Origin: Bacteroidia bacterium
Lineage (GTDB): Bacteria; Bacteroidota; Bacteroidia; NS11-12g; UBA955
NCBI GenBank assembly: GCA_044377005.1
Contig: JBILJV010000001.1
Span: 34,999-98,998 of the forward strand
Direction: 5' to 3'
Length of the DNA: 64,000 nt
The notes under the pieces were generated by a model, which searched no databases, had not been told where the DNA came from, and saw nothing but the letters and a program-made list of their open reading frames with translations. The position numbers and the translations under genes are program-made. Each line of letters starts with the position of its first letter. The stretch's first letter is position 1. Positions 36,223 through 55,125 of the stretch are shown here, one piece after another.

Positions 36223-37839
36223 TTACTCTTTTGCAATTTTTATTCTCTCAATATTATTCCCTATAGTAAAACTCAAAGTGTAAATGCCGGATTTAAGCAT
36301 ATCGATATTGTTAATTAATATCGCATTATTTTCAATGTTATAATAGTTCGATAATACTAGTTTACCATCTGAAGAATACATTTTAATTAAACTAGAGGTT
36401 TCTTCTGAATTTGCTAATAGGATATTAATATGGTCTTTGCACGGATTGGGAAAGGCAATATTGTTTTTATTTTTTTCAATTGATGTGATAGCCGTAGTTT
36501 TATCTTGGTATATTCTTATGTAATCAATTTCCAAATTACTTTGAGTAAATGATTGACTAATATTAGGAAGTATGGCAATATTTATTAGTAGATATTGTTC
36601 CAAATCAAAGGGCCAAGTACTATTGTTTTTTATTTCAGGTTCATATGTATAATGAACGACTGAATCAACGCTGAACTCGATTTTATTTGGAGTCCATTCC
36701 ATAGAATATAAATGAAACGAATTAGATGCATTTGGAATTGTTTGTCCTCCAAAATTGATGGTATTGCCAAAACTAGAAGTGGTGTGAATAGCACTTTGAA
36801 CAAAATTTTGATTTTGTCCCCAATGTTCTAGAATATCTATTTCGCCGCATGCTGGCCAAGACATGTTTCCAAAACCTAAGTTGTGCCAATAAGCCCCTCT
36901 TTCATCAATGTTTTTTCCTAACATCCATACAGCAGGCCATGTTCCTACGCCAGAAGGGAGTTTTGCGCTAAACTCAACCCTGCCATATTTAAAGGCAAAT
37001 TTTGAATTAAGTCTAGCAGATGTGTATTGTTTGGTATGGCCCTGGTCAGTAAAATTTTCTCTTTTAGCAATCACTTTCAATAGGCCATTCTCAACAAAAG
37101 AATTACTAGGTCTGTTAGTATAATGTTGGATTTCGCCGTTATGCCAACTGTTAGATGTGGGGAGCTGAGTTTGATGATGCCATTTGTTATCGTTGATAGC
37201 GCCGTTGGTGTCAAATTCATCAGACCATACCAGTTTTGTGTATAGAGATTTAGTTGGAGGTGTTGCCAAGTATTCAAAGTCATCAATATAGGCAAGTACG
37301 CTGTCTCTGTTATTTTCTCCATTAATTTGAATTACAACTCTATTGAAATCTTTTCTTTGGATCGGAGGCAATGACCCTGTATTTAAATTTCTATAAGCGT
37401 CTTTGGCAAAATCAAATGTTATTGTTTGCCACTCGTCTGTAAGTATAGGTTTAATTATTTCCGATTGGGTCGACCAAGGTTCGTTAATGTTGCCATCTTG
37501 AAGTTTTAAAGAAATTTGGTTGATTTGAATACCAGAGAGTCTTTTAGAAGGGACATATACTTTTAATGAAAAGACACTTCCTTTGGATAGGTCAAAATTT
37601 CTATCATTGTCAAATCTGACATTGGCATATAAGCCACCTTTGTCTAAGTATTCCAAGACCTTTGAAGAGTTGTTTTGTGGAGTATTAATTGGATTTGGAA
37701 TTCCAAGTTTAATGAAGCAATCATCGCCTTTCCATGAATTGATATTCCCATTCCCTTCAAAATCGTCTTTTAAGATTTGTGAATTGGCGATAAAAGGATA
37801 AGTTATTCCAACTATAAAGAAGACGATTTTTTTAAACAT
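36223..37839 (-). CDS. GH16 beta-glucanase (laminarinase-like) with N-terminal CBM-like domain and T9SS CTD
   Basis: LVWSDEFD and catalytic EIDILE (ExDxxE) motifs; C-terminal AFPNPCKDHINI... sorting domain; signal peptide. Confidence 0.8.
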   Translation of the reverse strand: MFKKIVFFIVGITYPFIANSQILKDDFEGNGNINSWKGDDCFIKLGIPNPINTPQNNSSKVLEYLDKGGLYANVRFDNDRNFDLSKGSVFSLKVYVPSKRLSGIQINQISLKLQDGNINEPWSTQSEIIKPILTDEWQTITFDFAKDAYRNLNTGSLPPIQRKDFNRVVIQINGENNRDSVLAYIDDFEYLATPPTKSLYTKLVWSDEFDTNGAINDNKWHHQTQLPTSNSWHNGEIQHYTNRPSNSFVENGLLKVIAKRENFTDQGHTKQYTSARLNSKFAFKYGRVEFSAKLPSGVGTWPAVWMLGKNIDERGAYWHNLGFGNMSWPACGEIDILEHWGQNQNFVQSAIHTTSSFGNTINFGGQTIPNASNSFHLYSMEWTPNKIEFSVDSVVHYTYEPEIKNNSTWPFDLEQYLLINIAILPNISQSFTQSNLEIDYIRIYQDKTTAITSIEKNKNNIAFPNPCKDHINILLANSEETSSLIKMYSSDGKLVLSNYYNIENNAILINNIDMLKSGIYTLSFTIGNNIERIKIAKE

Positions 37840-38171
37840 ATTTGATTATTTTAAAATAAGTACTAGTTTGGCAAATGTAATTCTTTTTTAAATATATCAT
37901 TATAATGTATTTGTAAAAAAAGTTAAAAACCTATTAGATTATTTATTTTTCTCATAATAATTAACGAAATAATAAGTAAAAAATAATGAAGTTTTATGAA
38001 TTATTAAAAAAGTTGATAATGTAAATATAAATATTATTAGTATTGGGATGTTTGTAATTATTTAATATGTAGTGGATTAAATATTGTAGTAGTAGTGATG
38101 TAGTGTCTTTATTTGTTAATTCAATGTTAAAAAATTTAATTTGTTTTCGGATTTAATTAAAAATACATAAA

Positions 38172-40052
38172 ATGAAAAAAAATTACAAATTTAAAATGTC
38201 TAAAGTCAGTTTGATGTCTCAAATTGCTTTATTAACCCTATTATTTTCAAGCATTGGTTTACATGCTCAAAAATCTCCAATAGATTTTGAAACAGGAGGT
38301 AATGGTGCAACATGGACGTGGACAGTTTTTGAAAATAGCTCAAACCCAGCTATTGAAATCATTACAAATCCAGACCAGTCAGGTATTAATACTTCTTCTA
38401 AAGTTATGAAATTTACAGTTTTACAAGCTGGAAATCCTTGGGCAGGTTGTGAATCAAAACGTGGTTCAACAGATTTAGACACATTTTCTTGGAATTCAAA
38501 AAATAGAATCATAAAGATAATGGTTTGGAAGCCAATAATAAGTGATGTAGGGATAAAATTTGCTACAGATTCAGGATGGGCAGAAGTTGAAGTGAAGGTG
38601 GCTAATACCAAAATTAATGAATGGGAAGAGTTAACTTTTGATTTTACAGGTAAAATTAATCCACCATCACTAAAAGGTAATTTAAATCAAATTATTATTT
38701 TCCCAGATTTTCAAGCAAGAACTAGTGATAATATCTGTTACATAGACAATATTACATTTAATACTGGTACAGCATCTGAACCAACTACGGCTGCTCCAAC
38801 TCCTACACAAGCATCTGCAGATGTAATCTCAATGTTTAGTAATGCTTACACTAATAAATCTGTAAATTCATGGAGAACTGATTGGTCTAAAGCTACTCTT
38901 ACTGATATTCAAATAGCTGGAAATGATACCAAAAAATACACTTCTTTGGATTATGTAGGAATTGAAACTTTAGGAGCTAATTTGCTAGATGTTAGAAATA
39001 TGTTGTATTTTCATTTTGATGTATGGACTCCCAATGCTAATACAGTAAGTGTAAAATTAGTTGATGTTGGAGCTAATGGAACTTTTGGAGGAGGGGATGA
39101 TAAAGAACATCAAGTTACTTTAACACCTACAAAAAACGGTTGGAATAGTTTTGATGTGCCTATGTCTGACTTCACAGGATTAACCTCTAGAGAACATATT
39201 GCTCAGTTGATATTTAATTCTACACCATCAGGTCAAGGAACCTTATACATAGACAATATTTTCTATCACAAAACGCCGATTATCGACCCTAATACGCCAC
39301 AAGAAGCTGCTCCAACTCCAGTTTTTGTAGGAACAGATGTTATTTCTTTGTTTAGTAATTCATACACCAACAAAACGGTTAATACCTGGCGCACAGAATG
39401 GTCCGATAAATCTAATTTAACAGATTTACAAATTAAAGGAAATGATACAAAAAGATATACATCATTAAATTTTGTAGGTATTGAAACTCTTGATACTAAT
39501 GTAATTGATGCTTCTAAAATGGATAGATTTTATTTTAATGCATGGACGCCTAATTTAACTTCACTTAAAGTAAAATTAGTTGACTTTGGTGCTAATGGTG
39601 CTGTAGGTGGTGGTGATGATAAAGAACATGAACTAACATTGACTACTCCTACTTTAAATGCTTGGAATACTTATGACTTGCCTTTATCTAGTTTTACTGG
39701 TTTAACAACTAAATCACACATTGCTCAATACATATTAGTGGGAACTCCATCAGGTTCAGGTACTTTGTTTATTGACAATGTTTTATTTAGAAAAGAAGCA
39801 CTTTCTGTTTCTAGTACTACTTTAAATACTATCAGTGTTTATCCAAACCCAGCGACTGAACAAGTTACATTATCTTCAGTTACTACTATTACTTCAGTTG
39901 AATTGTTCAATAGCTTAGGTCAAAAAGTATTAAGCTTAAATTCTGATTCTAATATTGTAACAATCGATATTACTAATCTTAATAAAGGTGTTTATACTAT
40001 AAAAACAAATACTTATAATGGACAATCTGTTTCTAAAGTGATTGTAGAATAG
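38172..40052 (+). CDS. Secreted triple CBM-like-domain protein with T9SS CTD (putative beta-glucan-binding protein)
   Basis: Three ~170-aa homologous domains ending in IDNI(T/F)F-like strands; domains 2 and 3 form a 172-codon tandem repeat; C-terminal SVYPNPATEQVTL CTD. Confidence 0.7.
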   Translation: MKKNYKFKMSKVSLMSQIALLTLLFSSIGLHAQKSPIDFETGGNGATWTWTVFENSSNPAIEIITNPDQSGINTSSKVMKFTVLQAGNPWAGCESKRGSTDLDTFSWNSKNRIIKIMVWKPIISDVGIKFATDSGWAEVEVKVANTKINEWEELTFDFTGKINPPSLKGNLNQIIIFPDFQARTSDNICYIDNITFNTGTASEPTTAAPTPTQASADVISMFSNAYTNKSVNSWRTDWSKATLTDIQIAGNDTKKYTSLDYVGIETLGANLLDVRNMLYFHFDVWTPNANTVSVKLVDVGANGTFGGGDDKEHQVTLTPTKNGWNSFDVPMSDFTGLTSREHIAQLIFNSTPSGQGTLYIDNIFYHKTPIIDPNTPQEAAPTPVFVGTDVISLFSNSYTNKTVNTWRTEWSDKSNLTDLQIKGNDTKRYTSLNFVGIETLDTNVIDASKMDRFYFNAWTPNLTSLKVKLVDFGANGAVGGGDDKEHELTLTTPTLNAWNTYDLPLSSFTGLTTKSHIAQYILVGTPSGSGTLFIDNVLFRKEALSVSSTTLNTISVYPNPATEQVTLSSVTTITSVELFNSLGQKVLSLNSDSNIVTIDITNLNKGVYTIKTNTYNGQSVSKVIVE

Positions 40053-40071
40053 CCTTTTTATAAATTGTTGT

Positions 40072-40112
40072 TAAAAGCTAGATGTGGATTTAATTTGCAT
40101 CTAGCTTTTTTT
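40072..40112 (+). terminator. Rho-independent terminator
   Basis: AAAGCTAGATG-13 nt loop-CATCTAGCTTT followed by TTTTTT. Confidence 0.7.
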
Positions 40113-40169
40113 ATGCCCATGTTAAATTGAATAGGGTATTAAGTTGCTAATTTAAAATGAATTAGATGT

Positions 40170-43100
40170 TTACTCTTTGTTATTGTTGCTTTGGAAATTG
40201 ATTAAGAATTCAAATAAATCCTGATGAGTCTCTAATTTTAATTTTTTCCTTAAACGGTATCTGCTTATTTCTACCCCTCTAACAGATATGCTAAATAGTT
40301 GGGCCATTTCTTTGCTCGATAAATTCATTCTTAAGTATGCACAAAGTTTTAATTCTTTGGAATTTAAATCAGGATATGCCTTTTTTAAATTATTTAAAAA
40401 ATCACTTTGTACATTTTTAACATGATCTGTAAATTTATCCCATTCCTCATCTAGTTTTTCATCTGATTTTATTTGACGTAATATTTTTCTAATTTCATTT
40501 GTCTCAACTTGGTCTTTGTTCTGAATAACTAAATTGTTTAAATGACTTGTTAACTTACCTAAAAAAGCTTTTTTCTGAAGCAAATTCATCGCAGTACTTG
40601 CCAAGTCTTCACTTTTGTGCTTTATCTCCGCTTGAAGATTGTCATTAGTCAATTGCATTATCGCTTTTTCATTCTTTTCAAGCTCAAGTTGATGTTTATA
40701 GTTGATTTGACGTTGATCTTCCTCAAATTTAAGTTTAGCCTCAAGCATCCTAATTTGTGCTTTTTTCTGTAGTTTTTTCTTTTGTAGTTTAAGCAATAAA
40801 TAAAACACAGATAATATGATTAATAGATAAAGAAAATAAGCCCAAATATTTCTATACCAAGGGGCTTTGATTTCAAAATTGTATGAGAATTGCTTAAACT
40901 CGTTTAATGGTCCATGTCTTGATTTTAAAATAAAAGTGTACTTACCTTCTTTGAGATTTGTGTATTCTTTTTCAGAAGTTGAACTCCAATTACTCCATTT
41001 TTTATCATGACCTTCCAGTAAGTAACTAAATTCAATGTTTGATTTATGCCTCAAAAATGAACTTGCAAATGAAAACCGGATTGAGTTTGATTTGTAAGGG
41101 ATTGATGTTATTAAATTGTTGTTTTTGAGGAGATTGTTGAATCCTCCATAAATAATTGAATCGCCACTTCCCAAGGTTTTTACTGAACTTATGTAAGTTT
41201 TATAAGGGAATATTTGCTTAGAATACTTATTATAATTGATTTTATAAAAGCCAATGTCTGATCCTATTATTGTGTTTTCGGAATCGTAGCAGTAAATATT
41301 TTCAAAACCACTTAGTACTTGATTAAATAGTTCAGGAATATATTTAACAACTGGTTGAGAATCTTTAAAGTCCACTATGCCTAACATTTTGTCTTGAACA
41401 AACCAAATATTGCCATTTAAGTCTTCTTTTAAATACCTTATTGGGATATTGCCCAATATGTTTTTATAAAGTATGGAAGGAATTAACTTATCTCTTTTTT
41501 GGTCTATTTCATAAATGCCTTTAATTGTAGCTATTACAATTTTGTTTTTTATTTTAAAAACATGATTATCTAATTCAGAAGGTAATCCATCTTTAGCAGC
41601 GTATTTTTTAATCCTGTTATCTGTTATGTTGATTTTATATAATCCATGATAAGGGTGTGATACCCAAATGGAATTATTTTCTACCTCCAAATAACGGCTT
41701 GATTCAATAAAGTTTCTGATAGAACCATCGTTTTTGAGTTCCTTATTCTCTTTGCGAAAAAGTTGAATGCCAAAATAATTTCCGCATACTATTTTAGGAG
41801 GAATACTAACGTTTATTGGTTTAAATGTCCAAAAGCCTAAAGATTTAAAAATAGGGCTTACTTTGTCGTTATCGACTTTCCATAATCCATCATCTCTACT
41901 CACAATTAGTTGGTTTTCATAAGTATTAACATTCCAAGTTAGGCCATTCATTATAATTTTGGGTTTCAATGAAAGTGAACCTAATTCGTTTTTTTGTTTA
42001 ATATCTATAGATTGTAATCCTGTAGACAATGCAAAATATAAATCTCCATTTAATCTAATAGCACCATGCCCACTGCCGTTGTTAAATGAGTTGGGATTTA
42101 TATGGTAAATGGAATTTCCCCAATCAATAAGTGCGATACTGTTATCCATTCCTATCCAAGTACATCCATCAAACCCACTGTAAAGGCAGCGCATTGTATT
42201 GCTTACTAATCCTTGTTTTGTAGAAATATTTCCCAGTATATTTCCTTTTTTGTCTATTTTGTAAAGTCCTGAATTATATGAACCTAATAAAAAATGATTG
42301 GCGTTAATGACCTCAATAGTTGTAAAGTGATTTTCTTTTATTAAGGCATTAATTTTAAATGGGAGTAACTGATTTTTGGTTAATAAGAATAACCCATTTC
42401 CTGTGGTACTCAATAAACTCGTATCGATTCCAAATGGCTTTATATCAGTGATTTGAAATCCATTAGGCAACAAACTTTGATTGATTAGGGATTCCCATCG
42501 GCCTTTGTTGTACAGCAGTATACCGCTTTTCTTGTCTTGAGCAATTAGTTTATTGTGGTGTTTTTTTAATGAAGTCCATGTTGTTTTCGGTTTAAAATAG
42601 GAGATACAGTTGTTCGAATATCTAAAAATAAACTGAGGTGTCATAAAAAAAACGTCTTGGTCAATTATTTCGATATTCCAGATATCGGCTAATGAACTAA
42701 CAAATGGTGGGAGTTGTTTTTTTAAAGATGTAAATATGAATTTTCCTGATTTGTCAGCTTTGAAATAGCCAAATTCGTCTTGTGCACCCACATATAATCG
42801 ACCATCATTGCTCATTGCAATAGATCTTACAATAGTTTTATTTGGAACAGGATATAATTCCCATTTTACACCATTGTATATCAAAAGGCCTTCGTTATTT
42901 GCAATAAACAATCTGCCCATATTATCCCTTTCAATATCCCAGTTTTGTGTGCCTGCAGAATATTCGGATTTTGAAAAAATAGAAACCTTTGCATTGTCAA
43001 TTTCCTCTTGTCCAAAGCAGTTGATAATGAAAAGAAGAAGATACAAGCCCAAAAATAACCCTTTTTTAGAGGTGCATTTTTCTTTGGTTTTGTTTCGGTA

Positions 43101-43187
43101 TTTTATTGATTTTCGGATGTTAATAATGCAAAAATAACCAAATTTTTCAGTTTGATGTAGTAAAGTAGTAGTTTTTATTGGTTGCAA
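40170..43187 (-). CDS. Transmembrane one-component regulator: periplasmic Reg_prop beta-propeller plus Y_Y_Y sensor, TM helix, coiled coil, LuxR-type HTH
   Basis: Reg_prop-like repeats (e.g. DGCTWIGMDNSIAL); Y_Y_Y block (FSYLLEGHDKKWSNW...YTFILKSR); TM IWAYFLYLLIILSVFYLLL; C-terminal HTH KLCAYLRMNLSSKEMAQLFSISVRGVEISRYRLRKKL; no HK or REC domain; true start uncertain (long pre-signal leader). Confidence 0.75.
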   Translation of the reverse strand: MQPIKTTTLLHQTEKFGYFCIINIRKSIKYRNKTKEKCTSKKGLFLGLYLLLFIINCFGQEEIDNAKVSIFSKSEYSAGTQNWDIERDNMGRLFIANNEGLLIYNGVKWELYPVPNKTIVRSIAMSNDGRLYVGAQDEFGYFKADKSGKFIFTSLKKQLPPFVSSLADIWNIEIIDQDVFFMTPQFIFRYSNNCISYFKPKTTWTSLKKHHNKLIAQDKKSGILLYNKGRWESLINQSLLPNGFQITDIKPFGIDTSLLSTTGNGLFLLTKNQLLPFKINALIKENHFTTIEVINANHFLLGSYNSGLYKIDKKGNILGNISTKQGLVSNTMRCLYSGFDGCTWIGMDNSIALIDWGNSIYHINPNSFNNGSGHGAIRLNGDLYFALSTGLQSIDIKQKNELGSLSLKPKIIMNGLTWNVNTYENQLIVSRDDGLWKVDNDKVSPIFKSLGFWTFKPINVSIPPKIVCGNYFGIQLFRKENKELKNDGSIRNFIESSRYLEVENNSIWVSHPYHGLYKINITDNRIKKYAAKDGLPSELDNHVFKIKNKIVIATIKGIYEIDQKRDKLIPSILYKNILGNIPIRYLKEDLNGNIWFVQDKMLGIVDFKDSQPVVKYIPELFNQVLSGFENIYCYDSENTIIGSDIGFYKINYNKYSKQIFPYKTYISSVKTLGSGDSIIYGGFNNLLKNNNLITSIPYKSNSIRFSFASSFLRHKSNIEFSYLLEGHDKKWSNWSSTSEKEYTNLKEGKYTFILKSRHGPLNEFKQFSYNFEIKAPWYRNIWAYFLYLLIILSVFYLLLKLQKKKLQKKAQIRMLEAKLKFEEDQRQINYKHQLELEKNEKAIMQLTNDNLQAEIKHKSEDLASTAMNLLQKKAFLGKLTSHLNNLVIQNKDQVETNEIRKILRQIKSDEKLDEEWDKFTDHVKNVQSDFLNNLKKAYPDLNSKELKLCAYLRMNLSSKEMAQLFSISVRGVEISRYRLRKKLKLETHQDLFEFLINFQSNNNKE

Positions 43188-43274
43188 TGTAATTCAAAAG
43201 ACTATTTTTGTCAAAAATTAGTTGTTATTTGTATCAATATAAAATTAATTTTATCAGTAGTAAATAAAAAGTAT

Positions 43275-46200
43275 ATGCCCAAAAAGAATATCGAAATGAT
43301 TAAAAAAATGCTAATCCAATTTTTTTTGTTATTAGCTCCATTGTTAGTATTTGCACAAAGTGAAAAAGTGGAAGTAATTAAGTCGGAAAATGGATTTAAA
43401 CTTTCAGTCAATGGAAAAGACCTGTTTATAAATGGAATGAATTGGGATTATTTTCCAGTGGGAACAAATTACAATTACAGTTTGTGGAATCAGTCGGATG
43501 ATTTGATAAAAGCTGCTTTGGACAATGAAATGTCCTATCTAAAAAATATGGGAGTTAATGCCATTCGACAATATTCGGGTGTCCCTGCCAAATGGGTAAC
43601 ATATATCTATAATAACTACGGAATTTACACCATGCTCAATCATTCTTTTGGTCGTTATGGATTAAATATCAATGGTAAATGGGAAGCCAATACAGACTAT
43701 TCTAATCCAGCAGTTAGGGAAGTTTTGCTAAAAGAAACTAAGGAAATGGTGTCTCAATATAAAGAAACGCCAGGAATTTTGTTGTTTTTGTTAGGAAATG
43801 AAAATAATTATGGTCTCTTTTGGAGAGGCGCTGAAACAGAAAGTATCCCATTTGCGGATAGAAAATCGACTAAAGATGCTTACTTTATGTATAAGCTTTT
43901 TAATGATGCTGTTAAAGAATTAAAAACAATTGACAAAAATCATCCAATAGCCATTTGTAATGGTGATTTATTGTTTTCTGACATTATTGCAAAAGAGTGT
44001 GCTGATGTTGATATTTTAGGAGTAAATTGCTATAGAGGTCTTACTTTTACTGACCTGTATGAGCGAGTAAAAAAGGAGTTAAATATCCCTATTCTTCTTA
44101 CTGAGTTTGGATCTGATGCTTACAATACTCGTTCAAATATTGAAGACCAAGAGTTTCAAGCACAAGTATTATTGAGTAATTGGAAGGAAATATACAGCAA
44201 TGCTGCTGGAATGGGAAAAAATAATAATAGTTTGGGTGGTTTTACTTTCCAATTCAGTGATGGATGGTGGAAAACAGGTCAAACAATCAATTTGGATGAA
44301 CACGATGTTACAGCTTCTTGGTCTAACGGTGGGTATGGTAACGATTATGTTCAGGGTGAAAATAATATGAATGAAGAGTGGTTTGGAATTTGTGCAAAAG
44401 GTAAAACAAATGAACGTGGTTTATATGAGTTATATCCAAGGGCGGCTTATTATGCGCTTCAGAATATACACAATTTCAACCCATATTTAAGTAATTCTAA
44501 TCTAATAAATACTTATTTTAATTCCATATCAATTTTAGATGCAGCCTTAAAGGCAAGAGGAGATAAATCTGTTTTGGAATCCAAAGACAAAGGGAAATTG
44601 TATTTAAGCAATTTACAAGCCAATTTTAACACCTATCAAACAGGAGGAAGTTTAATAACAACACCGTCCACTTCCAATCCCTTAAATTCAAATTCATATC
44701 CCAATGTTCAAGGCTTTGACCATATGCAATCTTTTAACTTTGGAATTACCGCAAGGCCTGCTCCTAATATGAAAGCAAATGTTCAATTTAATGTATTAGG
44801 GAATGTTGCTACTAATCCAATAGATGAAATATTCTATGAAAATAGAGGAAGACCAATAACCATTCAAACGCCATCTGGACCACAACAAATTAACTCAAAT
44901 AATAGAGTACAATTGTATAAAGCCAATTACAGTTGGGATGCTAAGGATTTTAAACTAACAGGATTTTATAGAACAGGTCATTACCATTGGGGTTATGAAG
45001 GTGACTTTTTTGGATTATATCCTGAAGCCAATTATGGTCCTAATATTGATATATACAACGGCAATGCACCTTTTGGTTTTGAAATAGAAGGTAAAAAAAA
45101 TATTAAAGGTTTAAAGCTGGCTTTTGGTCCTGAATTATGGTGGGGAGCCAATCCAGCTTTTTTGTTAAAATACAATCGAAAAATAGCAGGGTTAGATGTT
45201 ACAGGGATTTTTCATGAGGATATTACTCAAAGAAATAATCTACAAAGTTCATTTGCAGTTCCTATGCCTAAAACTAGAAGATTAACCGTAGCAATAGGTA
45301 AGAAAATGAATCATTTTACCTTCGATTTGGGAGGGATTTGGGGCGGACAACCACTCAATGGAAGAACATTTCAAATGGTTTATGAAAATGTAGTCTACGA
45401 AGATAAAATTCAAAGTACAGATAATTTTGGGGGTAAAGCAAAACTCACCTATTCAAAAGGAGCTTTTCGTTGGTATGGTCTTGCTTCATATATGGGTTTA
45501 GTAGCTAATGGAGGGGTAGACCAAACCAAAACATTTACCGGTTGGGTTCTTAAGGATATAGGAAGCGGAAATATGTATAATGCACTTACAGGTCTGACAT
45601 ACAATATTGGTAAAATTCAAATAGCACCCAATTTTTTATTTCAAAAACCCTTAGTGGGTCCCATTGGCCCTAATTATTTAGCACCCGCTCGCCCAAGAAA
45701 CATTTTAGACGATCCTTTTTCTGTGAGAGGAAATAGAGAAACAGTGGGTGGAGAAATGTTGATTACATATGATCCAACACCTGCAACTTGGATGTATGAG
45801 TGGGATAATGACAGAATGGAAGATGCCAAATTTGCTTTTAGTTCAGGATTTGTTTACAGACATTTACCCACGGTTCAAGATGCCTCTATAGGTATTTTAG
45901 GAAATGGTCGTACCACTTTTGTCTTTCCGGGTTCTGCACCCGCGCAGGATCTTTGGGAACTAAACGCTAGAGTTGTTTCTAAAATTAATCCCGAATTCGG
46001 AATTATTGGGAATTTGTATTTTGGAAATGGTCAAGCCAATGGAAACGATACTAGAACAATCAATAGATATGGAATGGATATTAGAACTATTTATAAAAAA
46101 ATGAAACTAATTACCATTGTTAAAATAGATGATTGGGGTCCATTTGACTATCACCGAGATTTTAACCAAACTTTCCCACTTCAATTGATAGGTGATTGGT

Positions 46201-46418
46201 CAATAGAAGTTGGAAAGCCTGATTGGTTTATGCTCCCAGGAACGAAACTTGGATTCAGAACAACATATAGGACTTTAAATAAATACTCCAACAGATATTC
46301 ACCAATTACAACTTTAAATAATTTAGGTCAATTTGTCCCTGACCCCAATGCACTTGGTTTTCCGAATGGTAACGAATGGGAGCTAAGAACCTACATTCAA
46401 ATCAATATCAATAATTAA
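43275..46418 (+). CDS. Fusion protein: clan GH-A-like glycosidase TIM barrel (NE and TEFG motifs) plus ~600-aa beta-rich porin-like C-terminal domain
   Basis: Signal peptide LLVFAQS; N-terminal domain with LGNENNYG (acid/base-like) and ILLTEFGSDAYN (nucleophile-like); C-terminal half rich in Gly/aromatic residues with alternating strands; start refined from 43182 to the ATG at 43275. Confidence 0.5.
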   Translation: MPKKNIEMIKKMLIQFFLLLAPLLVFAQSEKVEVIKSENGFKLSVNGKDLFINGMNWDYFPVGTNYNYSLWNQSDDLIKAALDNEMSYLKNMGVNAIRQYSGVPAKWVTYIYNNYGIYTMLNHSFGRYGLNINGKWEANTDYSNPAVREVLLKETKEMVSQYKETPGILLFLLGNENNYGLFWRGAETESIPFADRKSTKDAYFMYKLFNDAVKELKTIDKNHPIAICNGDLLFSDIIAKECADVDILGVNCYRGLTFTDLYERVKKELNIPILLTEFGSDAYNTRSNIEDQEFQAQVLLSNWKEIYSNAAGMGKNNNSLGGFTFQFSDGWWKTGQTINLDEHDVTASWSNGGYGNDYVQGENNMNEEWFGICAKGKTNERGLYELYPRAAYYALQNIHNFNPYLSNSNLINTYFNSISILDAALKARGDKSVLESKDKGKLYLSNLQANFNTYQTGGSLITTPSTSNPLNSNSYPNVQGFDHMQSFNFGITARPAPNMKANVQFNVLGNVATNPIDEIFYENRGRPITIQTPSGPQQINSNNRVQLYKANYSWDAKDFKLTGFYRTGHYHWGYEGDFFGLYPEANYGPNIDIYNGNAPFGFEIEGKKNIKGLKLAFGPELWWGANPAFLLKYNRKIAGLDVTGIFHEDITQRNNLQSSFAVPMPKTRRLTVAIGKKMNHFTFDLGGIWGGQPLNGRTFQMVYENVVYEDKIQSTDNFGGKAKLTYSKGAFRWYGLASYMGLVANGGVDQTKTFTGWVLKDIGSGNMYNALTGLTYNIGKIQIAPNFLFQKPLVGPIGPNYLAPARPRNILDDPFSVRGNRETVGGEMLITYDPTPATWMYEWDNDRMEDAKFAFSSGFVYRHLPTVQDASIGILGNGRTTFVFPGSAPAQDLWELNARVVSKINPEFGIIGNLYFGNGQANGNDTRTINRYGMDIRTIYKKMKLITIVKIDDWGPFDYHRDFNQTFPLQLIGDWSIEVGKPDWFMLPGTKLGFRTTYRTLNKYSNRYSPITTLNNLGQFVPDPNALGFPNGNEWELRTYIQININN

Positions 46419-46451
46419 TGAAATTTCAACTCTTGCTAATATAAAAATAAT

Positions 46452-47858
46452 ATGAAAATGATAAATAAGTTAAGTGTTCAAATAGGTTTTATCGCCCTAT
46501 TTTTAATGGTTCAATTAGGGTGTAAACGCGAATTATCAGAGGATGCTGTATTGCCTCAATTTAGCAAAAATCCATATGTTTTTACCGATAACTTTATAGG
46601 ATTAGGTTCTGATTTTTATTTCCCTTTTGCAGATGCTAAGCCAGATGTTTTTTCAGTTGACTTAAAAGAGGGTTTCGAAAGCAATGCTTCAGTTAGAATT
46701 GATGTGCCCAATGAGACTGATCCAGGAGGAGCTTATGCTGGGGCAATTTTTAGAATAGATGGTGCTGGTAGAAATTTAAGTAATTATGATGCAATAACTT
46801 TTTATGTTAAAGCCTCTACTGGAACAAAATTAGGTGATGTTGGATTTGGGATTGATTACATTCAAGACAAAAATAAAGTGTCTATTCAAAATGTAAATGT
46901 TGGAACCAATTGGACCAAAGTTATTATTCCTATTCCCGATCCTACTCAATTGGTTAATGAAAGAGGTGTTTTTTGGTTTGCAGCTGGTACACAAGAGACT
47001 AATGGGGCAGGATATGTACTTTGGTTTGATGAAATTAAATTTGAGAAATTAGGGACTGTGGGAAAGCCAACTTCAAGGATTTTAAATGGCGAAGTTAGCA
47101 CGGTAAAGTCCTTTGTTGGAGCCTCAATAACGGTTACAGGTTTGAATCATATTTTTAATCTAACAAATGGTCAAGATGTTATTGTGAATTCTACTTCTGC
47201 ATATTATAACTTTTCAAGTTCAAATACTTCTGTGGCATCAGTTAATGACTCAGGAATTGTGAAAATATTAGCTATAGGTACAGCAGAAATAACGGCTAGA
47301 GTCAATGGGATATTAGCGAAAGGTAAGTTGATTATTGAGTCAAAAGGTAATTTACCTGGCGCACCTATCCCAACTAGGTCAGCAATCGATGTTAAATCTA
47401 TTTTTAGTGATGCTTATGTCAATGCAACTGAAAGTAATTTTACACCAGGTTTTGGCGGCTCTACTACAGTTTTTGACCAATTGACAACCAGTAGCGGTAA
47501 GATAATACAATATAATAATAATAATTATACAGGAATAATCTTTGGGAATACAGTCGATGCATCTTCTCTTGGTTTTTTACATATTGATGCATACGTAGAA
47601 AATGCATCATCTGTAATTGGAATTCAAATTAGAGATATTGGGGCAAATAAAACAATTGAGACTGACGTGTTTACAGGGAATCCAATAGGAGATGATAAGG
47701 ATAAAAGAATGAATTTGTCTGGATTTGAAGCAGGAGTATGGAAGTCTTTTGATATTCCTTTAAATGCAGGCATTCTGAATCAAAAAAATAATTTAGGTGC
47801 AATTATTTTAACCGGAGGTCCAAATTTTATGATAGACAATATCTATTTTTATAAATAA
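46452..47858 (+). CDS. Surface lipoprotein with CBM-like domain, Big_2 Ig-like domain and CBM-like domain (SGBP-like)
   Basis: Lipobox VQLGC; central Big_2 signature (SVASVNDSGIVKILAIGTAEITARV); C-terminal domain homologous to the repeats of the 38172 protein (AIDVKSIFSDAYVN...IDNIYFY). Confidence 0.65.
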   Translation: MKMINKLSVQIGFIALFLMVQLGCKRELSEDAVLPQFSKNPYVFTDNFIGLGSDFYFPFADAKPDVFSVDLKEGFESNASVRIDVPNETDPGGAYAGAIFRIDGAGRNLSNYDAITFYVKASTGTKLGDVGFGIDYIQDKNKVSIQNVNVGTNWTKVIIPIPDPTQLVNERGVFWFAAGTQETNGAGYVLWFDEIKFEKLGTVGKPTSRILNGEVSTVKSFVGASITVTGLNHIFNLTNGQDVIVNSTSAYYNFSSSNTSVASVNDSGIVKILAIGTAEITARVNGILAKGKLIIESKGNLPGAPIPTRSAIDVKSIFSDAYVNATESNFTPGFGGSTTVFDQLTTSSGKIIQYNNNNYTGIIFGNTVDASSLGFLHIDAYVENASSVIGIQIRDIGANKTIETDVFTGNPIGDDKDKRMNLSGFEAGVWKSFDIPLNAGILNQKNNLGAIILTGGPNFMIDNIYFYK

Positions 47859-47865
47859 AGGCAAT

Positions 47866-48708
47866 TTGAAGAGAATTTTAAATAAACAATTAATGAATAA
47901 ATCGAATAAATTAACACTATTGACAATTTTAGCAATTTCTATGGGAGGATGTAAGGTAGAACCCATTCAGAACTTACCGGAAAAAAAATATGAATTGGTT
48001 TGGAGTGATGAGTTTGTAGGTGATTCTGGCGTTAATCCTAATGCTTTAAATTGGACTTACGATATTGGCACTGGACAAAATGGTTGGGGAAATAATGAAC
48101 TTCAATCCTATACCAACAATCCCCAAAATGTATCTTTGGATGGTTCTGGGAATTTGGTTATTTCTGCTTTGAAAAGTACTACAGTTAACTACACTTCGGC
48201 AAGAATAAAAACAGAAGGTCTTTTTGCTCATCAGTTTGGAAGAGTTGAAGCACGTATAAAAACACCAACAGGTTCAGGAATTTGGCCTGCATTTTGGATG
48301 TTAGGAGCAGATTTTAAGGATGTTGGCTGGCCTAAGTGTGGTGAAATTGATATTATGGAACAAAAAGGCAAATTTTCAAACATAACTTATGGTTCAATTC
48401 ACGGACCAGGATATGCTGGTGGTCAAGCTATTACTACGCCATACGGATTAAAAGATAATAGGTTTGATGCTGATTTTAATGTTTACGCGGTTGAATGGGG
48501 CCAAAATTATATTGATTTTTTTGTCAATAATTATTTTTACAAAAGAGTAACCCCCAACGATGTTAAGGGTGAATGGGTATTTAATAAACCTTTTTTTATT
48601 ATCCTGAATATTGCTGTTGGTGGAAATTTTGTTGGTCCTCCCAATATCAATACCCCTTTCCCAAGTTATATGTATGTTGATTATGTTAGAGTTTACAAAG
48701 AAATATAA
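47866..48708 (+). CDS. GH16 laminarinase-like lipoprotein
   Basis: Lipobox MGGC; LVWSDEF; catalytic EIDIME; 280 aa single catalytic domain. Confidence 0.82.
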   Translation: MKRILNKQLMNKSNKLTLLTILAISMGGCKVEPIQNLPEKKYELVWSDEFVGDSGVNPNALNWTYDIGTGQNGWGNNELQSYTNNPQNVSLDGSGNLVISALKSTTVNYTSARIKTEGLFAHQFGRVEARIKTPTGSGIWPAFWMLGADFKDVGWPKCGEIDIMEQKGKFSNITYGSIHGPGYAGGQAITTPYGLKDNRFDADFNVYAVEWGQNYIDFFVNNYFYKRVTPNDVKGEWVFNKPFFIILNIAVGGNFVGPPNINTPFPSYMYVDYVRVYKEI

Positions 48709-48854
48709 CAAATAAAAAATGGAATTTAATTCAATATGTATTTAAATTCTTATTTAAATTTTTATTATATATTAAAAATTTACTATCTCATCTAAAATAT
48801 ATCCAATAGTCGGTTATTCATTTACCTTAAAAACGAAGCAATAGTTACCATATT

Positions 48855-51800
48855 ATGTCAGGTCAAAAACAAAATAAAAAAGCTACTTTGGTAGAGATAA
48901 AAAGATTGAAAATAGAAGGAGAAAACTTCTTTTGTATTTCAAATTATGATGAAATGCGTCCCTTTTTTATGAGTGTGGTTAGCGATTCGCACCATTGGAT
49001 GTTTATATCTAGCAATGGGGGAATTTCTGCTGGTCGCAAGAATGCCGAATATGCTTTGTTCCCCTATTATACTGCGGATAAAATTACGGAATCCTATGAT
49101 ATAACAGGCTCTAAATCTATTTTTCAAATTATTCAAAATGAAAAAATTCATGTTTGGGAACCCTTTTCAGAAAGGAATAATAGCTTGTTCAACGTTTCTA
49201 GAAATTTGTATAAAAATGCAATTGGGAATAAAATTATTTTCGAAGAAATAAATCACACTTTTGAACTTACATTCAGGTACGAATGGAACTCAAGTGATCA
49301 ATACGGTTTTGTTCGTAAATCTTCTCTAGCAAACAATGGCAATCAAGCCTTAACCGTTGCTATATTAGATGGAATACAAAATATTATGCCTGATGGTGTC
49401 GGTGCTGATTTGCAAAACTCAACGAGTATTTTGGTAGATGCTTATAAACGCAATGAACTTGAGATAGAATCAGGTATGGGTATCTATGCACTCAGTGCAA
49501 TAATAGTTGACAAGGCTGAACCAAGTGAAGCTCTAAAAGCAAATATTGCTTGGTCTATAGGTTTTGATAAACCCAAATTCTTGCTTTCTTCCCTTCAACT
49601 TAATGCCTTCAGAAACGGAGAGGATGTTGTTCAAGAAGAGGATATTAAGGCAGAAAAAGGGGCTTATTTTATTAATCAAAAAATAACCTTAGCCAGTGGC
49701 GAAAAGAAATCTTGGTTAATTGTAGCTGATGTTAACCAAAGTCAAGCAAATGTAGTCGAACTGACCAATGAAATTATTTCAAATAATGAACTAAAAAAGC
49801 AAATTGAAAATGATATAGAATTAGGCTCTAAGCGCTTAAAGGAACTGAATGCTTCCTCTGATGGAATTCAATTGTCAGATGATGTTTACAGAGATACTCG
49901 ACATTTTTCTAATACTCTTTTTAATATAATGAGAGGGGGTATTTTTGATTTTAACTATCAAATTGAAAAAAAAGACCTCGTCAGTTATCTTGAAAATGCC
50001 AATAAAGATGTTTATGAAATTCACAAGGACTTGTTGCATAGCTTGGATGAAGTTTTTAACGTTTTTCAATTGCAAGAAATATACAGCACAATTAATGACA
50101 ATAATTTTAAACGACTTTGTATAGAGTATTTGCCACTTAAGTTTAGCCGAAGACATGGAGACCCAAGTAGACCATGGAATAAATTTTCTATCAATACACG
50201 TAATGCGGATGATCATTCTAAGGTGTTGGATTATGAGGGGAATTGGAGAGATATTTTTCAGAATTGGGAAGCTTTGTCCATCTCTTATCCTGCATTTACC
50301 AAAGGGATGATTCATAAGTTTTTGAATGCAACAACATTCGAAGGCTATAATCCTTATAGGGTTACAAAGAGTGGATTTGATTGGGAAACCGTAGAGCCGG
50401 ATAATCCTTGGTCGTATATCGGTTATTGGGGTGATCATCAAATTGTTTATTTGCTCAAATTGTTGGAAATAAATGAGAAATACTATCCAGGCCAACTGAG
50501 TAGTCAATTCAGTGAAAACCTATTTGTGTATGCCAATGTTCCTTATAAAATTAAAAATTATCAGGCGATTTTAAAAAATGCGAAAGACACTATTCAATTT
50601 GATAAAAAGTTAGATGAAGAAATTAGAGAAAAACGAGTTTTAATTGGTTCAGATGCTGCATTGCTTTTTGCGCAAAATGATAAAATTTACAATGTCAATT
50701 TTATTGAAAAAATATTGGCCACAATTTTATCTAAACTTTCAAATTTTATTCCCGAAGGTGGTATTTGGATGAATACCCAAAGACCTGAATGGAACGATGC
50801 TAATAATGCTTTGGTTGGAAATGGAGTTTCTATGGTTACATTATATTACCTCAGAAGGTTCCTTGAATTCTTCGAAAAACTAATTGAACCAATAGATGAA
50901 GAGCGCGTAGAATTGTCGAATGAGTTAATCATTTTCTTTAAAAAAATTCATGCTACATTCGATGACAACTTAGCTTTGTTAGATTCAGGGATAAATGACA
51001 GTCAACGAAAAGCAATTCTTGATAGCTTAGGACAAGCAGGAAGCGATTACCGTGAACATATTTATAAACATGCTTTTTGGGGCGAAAAAAGAACTATATC
51101 ATACCGAAGACTTAAAAGCTTTGTTAAAGTAAGTCTTCAGTTTATTGAACATACCATTAAGGCTAATAAGCGTCATGATAATATGTATCATTCATACAAT
51201 TTAATGACACTGAATAGCAAAAACGAAATTTCAATCAACTATTTAAGTGAAATGCTTGAAGGTCAAGTTGCCGTTTTAAGCTCCGGATATTTGTCTCCTG
51301 AAAGTGCCCTTAAATTATTGGATAGTATGAAAAGTAGTGCCCTTTTTAGAGAAGATCAACAAAGCTATTTACTCTATCCTAATAAGCATCTTCCTAAGTT
51401 TTTAGATAAAAATAGAATTCCTATTGAATTAATCAAACAATCGCATCTTCTTTCACTTATGTTTAATGATGGAAATAAATCAATTATAGAGCAAGATTTA
51501 AAAGGGGAATTTCGATTCAATGGGAATTTTAAAAATTCAAATGACTTGAGTAATGCTATTGATTTATTAAGCCATTCTAAATATGCATCATTTCTTAAAA
51601 GTGAAAAGAAACAACTCTTAGAAATTTTCGAATCTGTATTTAATCACAAGTCATTTACTGGTCGCTCAGGCACTTTTTATGGATATGAAGGTTTAGGTTC
51701 TATTTATTGGCACATGGTTTCTAAACTGCAATTAGCAGTCCAAGAAATGTGTATTCAAGCAATAGAGTTACATGAAAGTACTGAACTTGTTGCAGGCTTG

Positions 51801-52307
51801 TTGAAGCATTATTACGAAATAAATGAAGGTGTTGGTGTGCATAAATCACCCACCATTTATGGGGCATTCCCAACCGATCCATACTCGCATACGCCAAGTA
51901 ACAAAGGAGCACAACAGCCTGGAATGACTGGTCAAGTAAAAGAGGATATTCTGAGTCGATTTGGTGAATTAGGTGTTTTTGTCTCGAAAGGTTGTTTGTT
52001 TTTTAACCCTTGCTTGTTGAGAAAAAATGAATTTATATCTCAAAATCGACAGTTTCATTATGTAACTCTTGACATGGAACACAAATCATTAATGCCTGAA
52101 ATTGGTTCCTTGTGTTTTACCTATTGCCAAATTCCTATTGTATATAGATTGTCAAATGATAATTATCTTGAAATTGAAAAAAGTGACGGCACTGTTTTAA
52201 GGAATAATTCATTGTATTTAAATGAAGAATTAAGTCAACAAATATTTAAAAGAACGGGTGCTATATCTATAATTACAGTTTATATCAATGAATCTATTTT
52301 GAAATAA
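48855..52307 (+). CDS. Large cytoplasmic protein, candidate glycoside phosphorylase/hydrolase (GH94-clan, e.g. GH149/GH161-like)
   Basis: 1150 aa with no signal peptide, embedded in a glycoside-hydrolase operon next to an MFS importer; family assignment is inferential and no motif was verified. Confidence 0.35.
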   Translation: MSGQKQNKKATLVEIKRLKIEGENFFCISNYDEMRPFFMSVVSDSHHWMFISSNGGISAGRKNAEYALFPYYTADKITESYDITGSKSIFQIIQNEKIHVWEPFSERNNSLFNVSRNLYKNAIGNKIIFEEINHTFELTFRYEWNSSDQYGFVRKSSLANNGNQALTVAILDGIQNIMPDGVGADLQNSTSILVDAYKRNELEIESGMGIYALSAIIVDKAEPSEALKANIAWSIGFDKPKFLLSSLQLNAFRNGEDVVQEEDIKAEKGAYFINQKITLASGEKKSWLIVADVNQSQANVVELTNEIISNNELKKQIENDIELGSKRLKELNASSDGIQLSDDVYRDTRHFSNTLFNIMRGGIFDFNYQIEKKDLVSYLENANKDVYEIHKDLLHSLDEVFNVFQLQEIYSTINDNNFKRLCIEYLPLKFSRRHGDPSRPWNKFSINTRNADDHSKVLDYEGNWRDIFQNWEALSISYPAFTKGMIHKFLNATTFEGYNPYRVTKSGFDWETVEPDNPWSYIGYWGDHQIVYLLKLLEINEKYYPGQLSSQFSENLFVYANVPYKIKNYQAILKNAKDTIQFDKKLDEEIREKRVLIGSDAALLFAQNDKIYNVNFIEKILATILSKLSNFIPEGGIWMNTQRPEWNDANNALVGNGVSMVTLYYLRRFLEFFEKLIEPIDEERVELSNELIIFFKKIHATFDDNLALLDSGINDSQRKAILDSLGQAGSDYREHIYKHAFWGEKRTISYRRLKSFVKVSLQFIEHTIKANKRHDNMYHSYNLMTLNSKNEISINYLSEMLEGQVAVLSSGYLSPESALKLLDSMKSSALFREDQQSYLLYPNKHLPKFLDKNRIPIELIKQSHLLSLMFNDGNKSIIEQDLKGEFRFNGNFKNSNDLSNAIDLLSHSKYASFLKSEKKQLLEIFESVFNHKSFTGRSGTFYGYEGLGSIYWHMVSKLQLAVQEMCIQAIELHESTELVAGLLKHYYEINEGVGVHKSPTIYGAFPTDPYSHTPSNKGAQQPGMTGQVKEDILSRFGELGVFVSKGCLFFNPCLLRKNEFISQNRQFHYVTLDMEHKSLMPEIGSLCFTYCQIPIVYRLSNDNYLEIEKSDGTVLRNNSLYLNEELSQQIFKRTGAISIITVYINESILK

Positions 52308-52311
52308 TAGA

Positions 52312-53595
52312 ATGTGTAAGATCCGTCTGTTATATCGTCTTTTGTGCATACTTTCGGTTATTCTAATTGCTTGCAATAATCACAATTCTGTAAAAAGGAA
52401 TAAAGGTGAAAAGCCCTTTAGCAAAAAAGCTTTTCAAATATTAGGGGATACGAATTACCAAGCAATTTGCTATGGAGGGTATAGGAAAAATACTCGAGAT
52501 TCACAGCCTACTTTATCTCAAATAACAGAAGATATGCGGATTTTGAATGCAATGGGGATTAAACTGTTACGAACCTATAACACTCATTACAATGAAATAG
52601 AAACTTTATTGCAGGCAATCACACATTTACGTTCTGAAAATTCGAATTTTGAAATGTATGTAATGCTAGGAGTTTGGATAGAATGTGAAAATGCATGGAC
52701 AGAAAAAGAGCCTAGCCATGACAAGGAAAATGAGAAAGCAAATGCGGCAGAGATAAAAAAAGCGGTTGAATTGGTCAATCAATATCCTGAAATAATTAAA
52801 ATGATAGCCGTTGGAAATGAAGCAATGGTAAAGTGGGCTACTAATTATTATGTTCAACCTAATGTAATTTATAAATGGGTTAATTATCTTCAGTTGTTGA
52901 AGAAAAAAAATCAGTTAGACAGGGATTTATGGATTACCTCTTCAGATAATTTCGCATCATGGGGTGGAGGCGATACTTCATATCATGTCGATGATTTAAA
53001 AAAACTTTATCAGGCCGTTGATTTTGTTTCTATTCATACTTATCCAATGCATGATACCTATTATAATCCTAGTTTCTGGGGAACATTGCCAATAGAAAAT
53101 CAATTGTCAAATGAAACTCAAATAGACTCTATTATGAATAGAACATTGGATTATGCAAAAATGCAATATCTTGGAGTTTATAATTATATGAAATCTATTG
53201 GCGTTAATAAGCCAATTCACATAGGAGAAACAGGTTGGTCAACGAATTCTAATGATTTGTATGGGAGTAAAGGAACAAGCGCTTGTGATGAATATAAATC
53301 GGCTAGATATTATCAACTCATTCGCGAATGGACCAATAAAGAAAAAATGACCTGTTTTTATTTTGAAGCCTTTGATGAAAATTGGAAAGATGCCAATAAT
53401 ATTGGTGGTTCTGAAAATCATTTTGGTTTATTTAAAATCAATGGAAATGCCAAATATGCACTTTGGAATAAAGTGGATAAAGGCGTTTTTAAGGGATTAA
53501 CTAGGGATGGGAACATCATTGAAAAAACATACAAAGGGAATAAAAAAAAATTGATGAAAACTGTAGAATTGCCTTTTAAATTAAAACAAAAATAA
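52312..53595 (+). CDS. GH17-like beta-1,3-glucanase/transglycosylase lipoprotein
   Basis: Lipobox LIAC; acid/base AVGNEAMV and nucleophile IGETGWST match GH17 motifs (xGNE / ETGWPS). Confidence 0.6.
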   Translation: MCKIRLLYRLLCILSVILIACNNHNSVKRNKGEKPFSKKAFQILGDTNYQAICYGGYRKNTRDSQPTLSQITEDMRILNAMGIKLLRTYNTHYNEIETLLQAITHLRSENSNFEMYVMLGVWIECENAWTEKEPSHDKENEKANAAEIKKAVELVNQYPEIIKMIAVGNEAMVKWATNYYVQPNVIYKWVNYLQLLKKKNQLDRDLWITSSDNFASWGGGDTSYHVDDLKKLYQAVDFVSIHTYPMHDTYYNPSFWGTLPIENQLSNETQIDSIMNRTLDYAKMQYLGVYNYMKSIGVNKPIHIGETGWSTNSNDLYGSKGTSACDEYKSARYYQLIREWTNKEKMTCFYFEAFDENWKDANNIGGSENHFGLFKINGNAKYALWNKVDKGVFKGLTRDGNIIEKTYKGNKKKLMKTVELPFKLKQK

Positions 53596-55104: not shown

Positions 55105-55125
55105 TCTTATATTAAACCATCAATC

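Follow-up and report, generated by a model that had tools for sequence, protein, structure and literature searches.

The 64,000-nucleotide stretch of Bacteroidia bacterium DNA analyzed here (contig JBILJV010000001.1; the window) encodes two proteins that share a β-sandwich domain resembling carbohydrate-binding modules (CBMs). Protein A is a cargo of the type IX secretion system (T9SS), and protein B is a lipoprotein; the open reading frames (ORFs) of both are as given in an initial annotation made from the DNA alone. The shared domain, which we term D2-type after the second domain of protein A, occurs twice in tandem in protein A (D2 and D3) and once at the C-terminus of protein B (B_C). We consider it probable, at roughly 60%, that D2-type modules are an uncharacterized CBM-type family that binds laminarin-type β-glucan and is used in both routes of surface display. 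From the fold and the gene context we infer that the most likely ligand is laminarin-type β-glucan, that is, β-1,3-glucan with or without β-1,6 branches. Protein A, protein B, and their close relatives are all listed as 'hypothetical protein' in NCBI and JGI. Coordinates of the features discussed are collected in Table 1.

D2 and D3 of protein A have an amino acid identity of 61–63% (61% by BLASTP with E = 8e-78; 62.6% by alignment) and a DNA identity of 69%. The initial annotation described them as an exact 172-codon duplication at ~50% identity. The spacing from the ADVISMF motif of D2 to the TDVISLF motif of D3 is indeed 172 codons, but the closing IDN motifs are offset by 174 codons because of two one-residue insertions or deletions. 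Tandem Repeats Finder run on the DNA did not report the repeat, as the copies are too dissimilar at the nucleotide level. In four related loci (L001, L003, L004, and L005) the first copy shares 88, 72, 69, and 66% identity with D2, respectively, but the second copy in the same loci only ~61%, and D3 showed the same position-specific orthology in L001 and L003–L005. Copies at the same position in different genomes are therefore closer to each other than are neighbors within one protein, showing that the duplication is old and that both copies have been kept. The modules of protein A are linked by Pro/Thr-rich stretches.

The recurrence of the domain at the C-terminus of protein B was borne out by BLASTP, which matched B_C to D2 with 30% identity (E = 3.5e-21) and to D3 with 28% identity (E = 1e-17). 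Similarities of this size, like that of D2 to D3, greatly exceed chance expectation. A D2 hidden Markov model (HMM) scored ~130 bits on the B_C domains of orthologs. Searches for homologs of protein B returned more than 1342 sequences.

The D2-type module is not covered by any Pfam or NCBIfam model and has no PDB relative by sequence. A D2 profile searched against PDB sequences gave nothing significant, the best match being CBM11 at E = 0.14. The Pfam model CBM_11 (PF03425) scored 24.3 bits on protein A, below its cut-off of 27, and did not match protein B. Sub-threshold matches to CBM_11 were present in 7 of 28 members of the D2-type family, and in some multi-copy relatives the score exceeded the cut-off (28.9–33.3 bits). 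An AlphaFold2 model of D2, calculated from a 39-sequence alignment, was a confident nine-strand β-sandwich with a predicted local distance difference test (pLDDT) score of 96.1. Foldseek placed the CBM11 structures 6R3M, 6R31, and 1V0A at the top of the matches to this model (E = 1.6e-7 to 2.3e-7, template modeling (TM) score 0.65, 16% identity), followed by CBM30, CBM8, CBM29, and the CBM-like module of agarases of glycoside hydrolase (GH) family 50. Structure 6R3M is a CBM11 complexed with a mixed-linkage (β-1,3-1,4) glucan tetrasaccharide. The CBM-like nature proposed from the DNA alone thus holds, and no match to a family that does not bind carbohydrate was found in Pfam, NCBIfam, PDB, or Foldseek searches.

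Comparison of D2 with the CBM11 of Clostridium thermocellum Lic26A-Cel5E (CtCBM11; PDB 1V0A and 6R3M) by hhalign gave 85.7% over just 46 columns, covering a common G-x-D-x-E-H...W...F core. With residue 1 of D2 defined as aa 204 of protein A, the near-invariant positions of the D2-type family are Y23, W35, D80, G97, W121, Q142, D158, and N159. CBM11 is therefore the best structural match, shares a core motif, and is approached by near-threshold Pfam matches, but it is only 16% identical, lies below the Pfam cut-off in the window, and is found on Firmicutes cellulosomal enzymes. The D2-type module is a distant CBM11 relative and a sister of the family of PDB 8QX6, or 'CBMxx' family (below): it fails the CBM11 HMM threshold and lacks direct sequence similarity to 8QX6, yet it has their fold. 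Judged against Pfam, NCBIfam, and PDB, we regard it as a possible new CBM family.

BLASTP matched D1, the N-terminal domain of protein A, to neither D2 nor D3, and the similarity of D1 to the D2-type module was seen only profile-to-profile (hhalign, 93.4 and 95.1%). BLASTP did match D1 to the N-terminal domain of the adjacent T9SS-exported GH16 enzyme (E = 2e-5; hhalign, 94.8%). In a phmmer search D1 matched PDB 8QX6, a 'PKD domain-containing protein', at E = 7.7e-6, and a D1-type profile from related loci matched nearly the entire 8QX6 chain (E = 3.9e-19, 72 bits). The next PDB match of this profile was 1GUI, the laminarin-binding CBM4-2 of T. maritima Lam16A, at E = 0.014. The D2 profile did not find 8QX6 up to E = 10, and across the 80 loci analyzed (below) an 8QX6 fragment matched D1-type positions only and D2-type positions never. 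A D2-type module lies directly C-terminal to a D1-type module in ~50 of these 80 loci. We take 8QX6 to be the crystal structure of the laminarin-binding CBMxx_IV module of the surface glycan-binding protein (SGBP) of Christiangramia forsetii.

The CBMxx modules of the C. forsetii SGBP bind laminarin as judged by gel electrophoresis, isothermal titration calorimetry, and a crystal structure, whereas the Ig-like modules of the same protein showed no binding (Zuhlke et al., bioRxiv 10.1101/2023.09.07.556657; Environ Microbiol 2024;26:e16624). The proteins of the window resemble that system in having tandem β-sandwich modules on non-catalytic surface proteins of laminarin loci, in the proline-containing linkers, and in the presence of modules N-terminal to GH16. 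D1 and the N-terminal domain of the neighboring GH16 belong to the CBMxx/8QX6 family by sequence, whereas D2, D3, and B_C have no direct sequence match to it and are similar only profile-to-profile. T9SS cargo is not mentioned in the CBMxx paper (bioRxiv 10.1101/2023.09.07.556657).

Protein B consists of a lipoprotein signal, a linker, a CBM30-like domain (B_N), an Ig-like domain, and B_C. In the AlphaFold2 model three β-rich domains follow a low-confidence stretch (aa 23–68), with a mean pLDDT of 72. The B_N profile matched the CBM30 structures 1WMX and 2C24 at E = 4e-4, a remote similarity. A family-level match was not reached, as the Pfam CBM30 model scored 14.3 bits (E = 0.04) on B_N, under its cut-off of 27. 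The Ig-like domain had been annotated as Big_2 (PF02368); in protein B itself this model scored 18.1 bits, short of the 22.8-bit cut-off, but orthologs reached 25–36.5 bits and the region was modeled as a confident β-sandwich (pLDDT 85–96).

In the initial annotation protein A had three homologous domains, and the two proteins together carried five copies of one module. The homology of D2 and D3 is clear, and D1 belongs with them only at the profile-to-profile level. We regard it as very improbable that D1, D2, D3, B_N, and B_C are all copies of a single module. A similar closing strand, (I/F)D(N/E)I-x-F, is common to all five, the D1 and D2 profiles match at 93–95%, and B_N reached 48% against D2 in one hhalign comparison. 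Against this stand the absence of a BLASTP match between D1 and D2 or D3, the detection of 8QX6 by the D1 profile and not the D2 profile, the restriction of 8QX6 fragment matches to D1-type positions, and a second hhalign comparison in which B_N gave only 20% against D2, B_N matching CBM30 instead. There are accordingly three clear copies, one sister-family copy (D1), and one CBM30-like domain (B_N).

A scan for D2-type loci in 185,579 species genomes retrieved at least 573 relatives, of which the best 80 loci were analyzed. All 80 are from Bacteroidota, mostly freshwater metagenome-assembled genomes (MAGs), Flavobacterium, Saprospiraceae, and Chitinophagaceae, with Gillisia limnaea and Flagellimonas also represented. 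The closest locus (L001), from the MAG 'Bacteroidia bacterium' isolate ME2018-05-07, is syntenic with the window at 73–96% protein identity. Between one and five tandem D2-type copies are present per protein. B-like lipoproteins carry one, two, or three copies on a constant base of B_N and Ig-like domain, and variation of this kind is what a binding module would be expected to show.

Delivery by two routes, as proposed for proteins A and B, is found family-wide. About 56 complete carriers have a T9SS C-terminal sorting domain (CTD) and no lipobox, and 24 have a lipoprotein signal and end no more than 3 residues past the last module. At least 10 loci encode carriers of both kinds. By nearest neighbor, 125 of 136 T9SS modules and 52 of 56 lipoprotein modules pair within their own route, indicating that the routes use old, mostly separate D2-type lineages. 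Recent swapping of modules between the routes was considered and dropped, since nearest neighbors were mostly same-route.

The T9SS sorting signal of protein A was confirmed with family models, its type A CTD scoring 51.6 bits with PF18962 (cut-off 27) and 46.8 bits with TIGR04183 (cut-off 23). Three proteins of the window bear such a domain according to Pfam. Like known type A T9SS cargo with CBMs, protein A combines a Sec signal with a Por_Secre_tail domain, as do the ~56 complete relatives; unlike such cargo, it has no catalytic domain. The lipobox of protein B, recognized by inspection, is kept in all 24 B-like and SGBP-slot relatives, and orthologs follow the post-lipobox pattern C-[EK]-R-x-[LI]-S-[DE]-[DE]. 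Its description as an SGBP-like lipoprotein is thus upheld as regards the lipobox, whereas 'SGBP' applies by analogy, there being no SusC/SusD in the locus.

Table 1. Features of the window, in window coordinates.
Feature	Coordinates	Strand	Description	Basis
Protein A	38172..40052	+	626 aa; T9SS cargo with no catalytic domain (signal peptide, D1, D2, D3, CTD)	ORF, Pfam, NCBIfam
Signal peptide of A	38172..38267	+	Sec signal, aa 1-32 (ends ...SSIGLHA, then QK from 38268)	Translation, inspection only
D1	38268..38780	+	aa 33-203 of A; 8QX6-like, CBMxx-type β-sandwich; sister family of D2	phmmer, profile search, hhalign
D2	38781..39287	+	aa 204-372 of A; D2-type CBM-like module after Pro/Thr/Ala-rich linker	BLASTP, AlphaFold2, Foldseek
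D3	39288..39809	+	aa 373-546 of A; second D2-type module, old tandem duplication	Identity to D2, position-specific orthology
CTD of A	39837..40046	+	aa 556-625; type A T9SS C-terminal sorting domain	PF18962, TIGR04183
Protein B	46452..47858	+	468-aa lipoprotein: lipobox Cys24, low-confidence linker, CBM30-like, Ig-like, D2-type	ORF, AlphaFold2
Signal peptide of B	46452..46523	+	Lipoprotein signal; lipobox LMVQLG-C24, then KRELSED	Inspection
B_N	46656..47060	+	~aa 69-203 of B; CBM30-like β-sandwich, not a D2-type copy	Profile vs PDB, Pfam, hhalign
Ig-like domain of B	47061..47351	+	aa 204-300; Ig-like (Big_2) spacer	Pfam, AlphaFold2
B_C	47352..47855	+	aa 301-468; divergent D2-type module closing B	BLASTP, D2 HMM
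D1-type module of T9SS GH16	37252..37785	-	aa 19-196 of ORF 36223..37839 (GH16 + Por_Secre_tail)	BLASTP, hhalign
BguR-type regulator	40170..43187	-	Membrane-spanning one-component regulator	Pfam, NCBIfam, published BguR description
1047-aa protein	43275..46418	+	'Hypothetical protein': Sec signal, GH158-like TIM barrel, ~600 aa of no known family	
GH16 lipoprotein	47866-48708	+		Pfam, NCBIfam
GH149	48855-52307	+	β-1,3-Glucan phosphorylase	NCBIfam equivalog, 1757 bits, full length
GH17	52312-53595	+		Pfam, NCBIfam
GH30	53596-55104	+		Pfam, NCBIfam
MFS transporter	55126-56688	+		Pfam, NCBIfam

The β-glucan genes of the window comprise two GH16 genes, one each of GH149, GH17, GH30, and GH158-like, a major facilitator superfamily (MFS) transporter, and a BguR-type regulator. 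The operon downstream of protein B runs on the + strand over 47866..56688. With one GH16 a T9SS cargo and the other a lipoprotein, the catalytic GH16 too is present here in both export versions. The T9SS GH16 gene (36223-37839, - strand), which carries the D1-type module, runs divergent to gene A. No signal peptide was evident in the GH149 protein.

The regulator has β-propeller repeats, a Y_Y_Y domain, one predicted transmembrane helix, and a C-terminal LuxR/GerE helix-turn-helix domain; kinase and receiver domains were not detected with Pfam or NCBIfam. The TTG listed as its start overlaps the next gene and probably lies too far upstream. These features match the BguR one-component regulator of marine laminarin loci (bioRxiv 10.64898/2026.01.10.698779), and the lineage carrying it here is likely a freshwater one. 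The laminarin locus of Formosa agariphila resembles the window in BguR control and in its set of GH16, GH17, GH30, GH149, and GH158 genes, and one of its proteins bears CBMs described as 'so far unclassified' (bioRxiv 10.64898/2026.01.10.698779), which makes it a possible counterpart of the D2-type carriers. The mention indicates that specialists are aware that such modules exist.

Relatives of the D2-type module are strongly associated with β-glucan genes. A homolog of a β-glucan enzyme of the window (GH16, GH17, GH30, GH149, or GH158-like) was present within 10 kb of the D2-type gene in 37 of the 80 loci, and 28 of the 44 loci of at least 15 kb had such a homolog or one of the BguR-like regulator. 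Two locus types can be recognized. The canonical type, found in L011, L073, L077, and L079, consists of BguR-like, SusC, SusD, D1/D2-type lipoprotein, and GH16 genes; Flavobacterium, Gillisia, and Flagellimonas have a D2-type lipoprotein in this SGBP slot, behind SusC/SusD. The type represented by the window consists of genes for a BguR-like regulator, the GH158-like 1047-aa protein, a B-like lipoprotein, GH16, GH149, GH17, GH30, and an MFS transporter.

According to the reading that we favor, protein B would be lipid-anchored through Cys24, and its linker, CBM30-like domain, and Ig-like spacer would place the D2-type module distally. It would behave as an SGBP-like protein, and the glucan that it captures would be passed to the GH16 lipoprotein encoded next to it and to the putative outer-membrane protein of the upstream gene. 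Protein A would be exported by the T9SS via its type A CTD and would use its one D1-type and two D2-type modules as a multivalent glucan binder that may be attached to the cell or released. Oligosaccharides made at the surface would be processed by the GH17 and GH30 enzymes, as suggested by the known activities of these families, imported by the MFS transporter, and phosphorolyzed by GH149, with the BguR-type regulator controlling the system.

A number of observations weigh against this reading or parts of it. The nearest solved relatives of the D2-type module bind other glucans (β-1,3-1,4 and β-1,4 glucans for CBM11; β-1,4 and mixed-linkage glucans for CBM30), which makes a ligand other than laminarin possible. 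The identity of 8QX6 with the laminarin-binding structure is a presumption. In three loci the D2-type module is combined in T9SS proteins with a CBM48/AMPK-type domain, which is an α-glucan- or glycogen-binding type (L043:6841-11259, L036:9020-10747, and L048:8972-10759), so the family may not be tied to β-1,3-glucan alone. No recognizable β-glucan gene is nearby in 16 of the 44 loci of at least 15 kb. Global alignment of D2 with CtCBM11 had a probability of 2%, and the residues of the binding cleft, among them the conserved tyrosines Tyr22, Tyr53, and Tyr129 of CtCBM11, could not be mapped onto D2. B_C keeps most of the near-invariant positions, but W35 is replaced by F, Q142 by A, and the E-H pair by D-K. 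As regards the display of protein B, the acidic residues after Cys24 are at +3, +6, and +7, and Lauber et al. are said to have placed the Bacteroidota surface-export signal, in 2016, at +2 to +5; surface exposure of protein B is uncertain because its acidic residues do not occupy these positions.

Much of this bears on the question of whether the D2-type module is a CBM with a different main ligand, be it mixed-linkage β-1,3-1,4-glucan, β-1,6-glucan, β-1,4-glucan, or a broad range of glucans, so that the locus would have targets beyond laminarin. The CBM11 and CBM30 matches, including the β-1,3-1,4 tetrasaccharide complex, favor such a ligand, as do the pairing with CBM48 and the long loci without β-1,3-glucan genes; moreover, the GH30 and GH16 families include enzymes active on β-1,6- and mixed-linkage glucans. 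We nevertheless think it rather unlikely, as GH149 and GH17 are β-1,3-specific families and a GH158-like gene is present too, D2-type modules hold the SGBP slot in loci with BguR, SusC/SusD, and GH16, and the sister CBMxx family has been reported to bind laminarin. Still less likely is that the D2-type module binds no sugar and serves as a spacer or a protein-protein docking domain with a CBM-like β-sandwich. SGBPs often contain Ig-like and CBM-like β-sandwiches that do not bind, such as the Ig-like modules of the C. forsetii protein, and both the residues lost from B_C and the failed mapping of the CBM11 binding site would fit such a role. Distal tandem arrays of one to five copies on a constant base suit a binding module better, however, as do the near-invariant aromatic and acidic positions (Y23, W35, D80, W121, and Q142) and the fact that every one of the leading structural matches is a genuine CBM. 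Binding of laminarin-type β-glucan by an uncharacterized CBM-type family is thus the best overall explanation of the module.

Protein B resembles the SGBPs of Bacteroidota polysaccharide utilization loci (SusE/F-like SGBP-B; PDB 7K44, 7KWB, and 6E57) in being a lipoprotein of tandem β-sandwiches with a distal CBM-like domain. Its gene, like theirs, lies just downstream of that of an outer-membrane component (here a candidate) and upstream of that of a surface GH16, and in other genomes a D2-type lipoprotein follows SusC/SusD in the true SGBP position. The differences are that the window has no SusC/SusD, as judged with Pfam and NCBIfam, and that in a Foldseek search with the whole protein B model the SGBP-B structures among the matches had TM scores of only 0.13–0.24. 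Multi-domain alignments with TM scores of at most 0.24 dominated that search, and the resemblance of the modeled protein to an SGBP is accordingly a loose one.

The position between the regulator and protein B, where SusC/SusD would stand, is taken by the gene for the 1047-aa protein. The TIM barrel of this protein is GH158-like (PDB 9ORO, E = 2e-5), and its ~600-aa C-terminal region has no relative in Pfam or PDB. Among 1.84 billion representatives searched, 473 relatives were found, including fused forms of ~1000–1100 aa and forms of 564–615 aa. Several of the shorter forms have signal-peptide-like N-termini, and most end in ...Y-x-Y-x-F, resembling an outer-membrane β-barrel protein. Together these features suggest a fusion of enzyme and barrel, and the ~600-aa region may be regarded, from its sequence, as a candidate outer-membrane barrel. 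The pair formed by this gene and a B-like lipoprotein gene is conserved in the loci of the window type (L001, L003–L007, L015, L026, L035, and L067), which belong to Bacteroidia MAGs, Flavobacterium lotistagni, Saprospiraceae, and Phaeodactylibacter. We advance only tentatively, with the odds against it, the idea that protein B is the glycan-capturing partner of the 1047-aa protein in a SusCD-independent β-glucan 'utilisome', with the latter protein combining a GH158-like endo-β-1,3-glucanase domain and an outer-membrane barrel of an undescribed family. The SusCD-less architecture around protein B is a more unusual feature than the module itself.

Several further observations were made around gene A and the 1047-aa gene. 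Clusters of the pentamer GTAGT, defined as at least three within 35 nucleotides, occur only twice in the 64 kb (38069-38104 and 43157-43172, + strand), with 0.21 expected from shuffled sequences. One precedes gene A and the other the 1047-aa gene, at a distance of ~70–105 nucleotides, and L001 has retained both. The clusters hint at co-regulation and may serve as a shared operator, perhaps that of the BguR-type regulator. A role as a general operator was dropped, as clusters at both positions were confined to the window and L001, its close relative. Upstream of the T9SS GH16 gene, a 627-aa T9SS cargo whose CTD is its sole recognized domain (34130-36013, - strand) and a 642-aa protein with CxxCH motifs (32119-34047, - strand) are also encoded; both are kept beside the locus in L001 with 95–96% identity.

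The D2-type repeat is real and widespread, but as a module it is of a rather ordinary type. Both SGBPs and T9SS cargo that bear CBMs are established concepts in β-glucan loci. In aquatic systems a major flux of carbon passes through laminarin-type β-glucans, and their use by Bacteroidota starts with capture at the cell surface. With at least 573 loci in the species genomes scanned, the D2-type module is abundant; it occurs in the SGBP slot of canonical laminarin loci and in many T9SS proteins, and it has no Pfam or NCBIfam model. If its ligand were shown, the module would probably give rise to a new CBM family in CAZy or enlarge an existing one. A known ligand would also improve the annotation of freshwater and marine glucan loci, and it would indicate whether T9SS-secreted and lipoprotein-anchored binders share out the capture of glucan. 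The conserved locus without SusC/SusD could matter more than the module, if it is a true alternative route of uptake.

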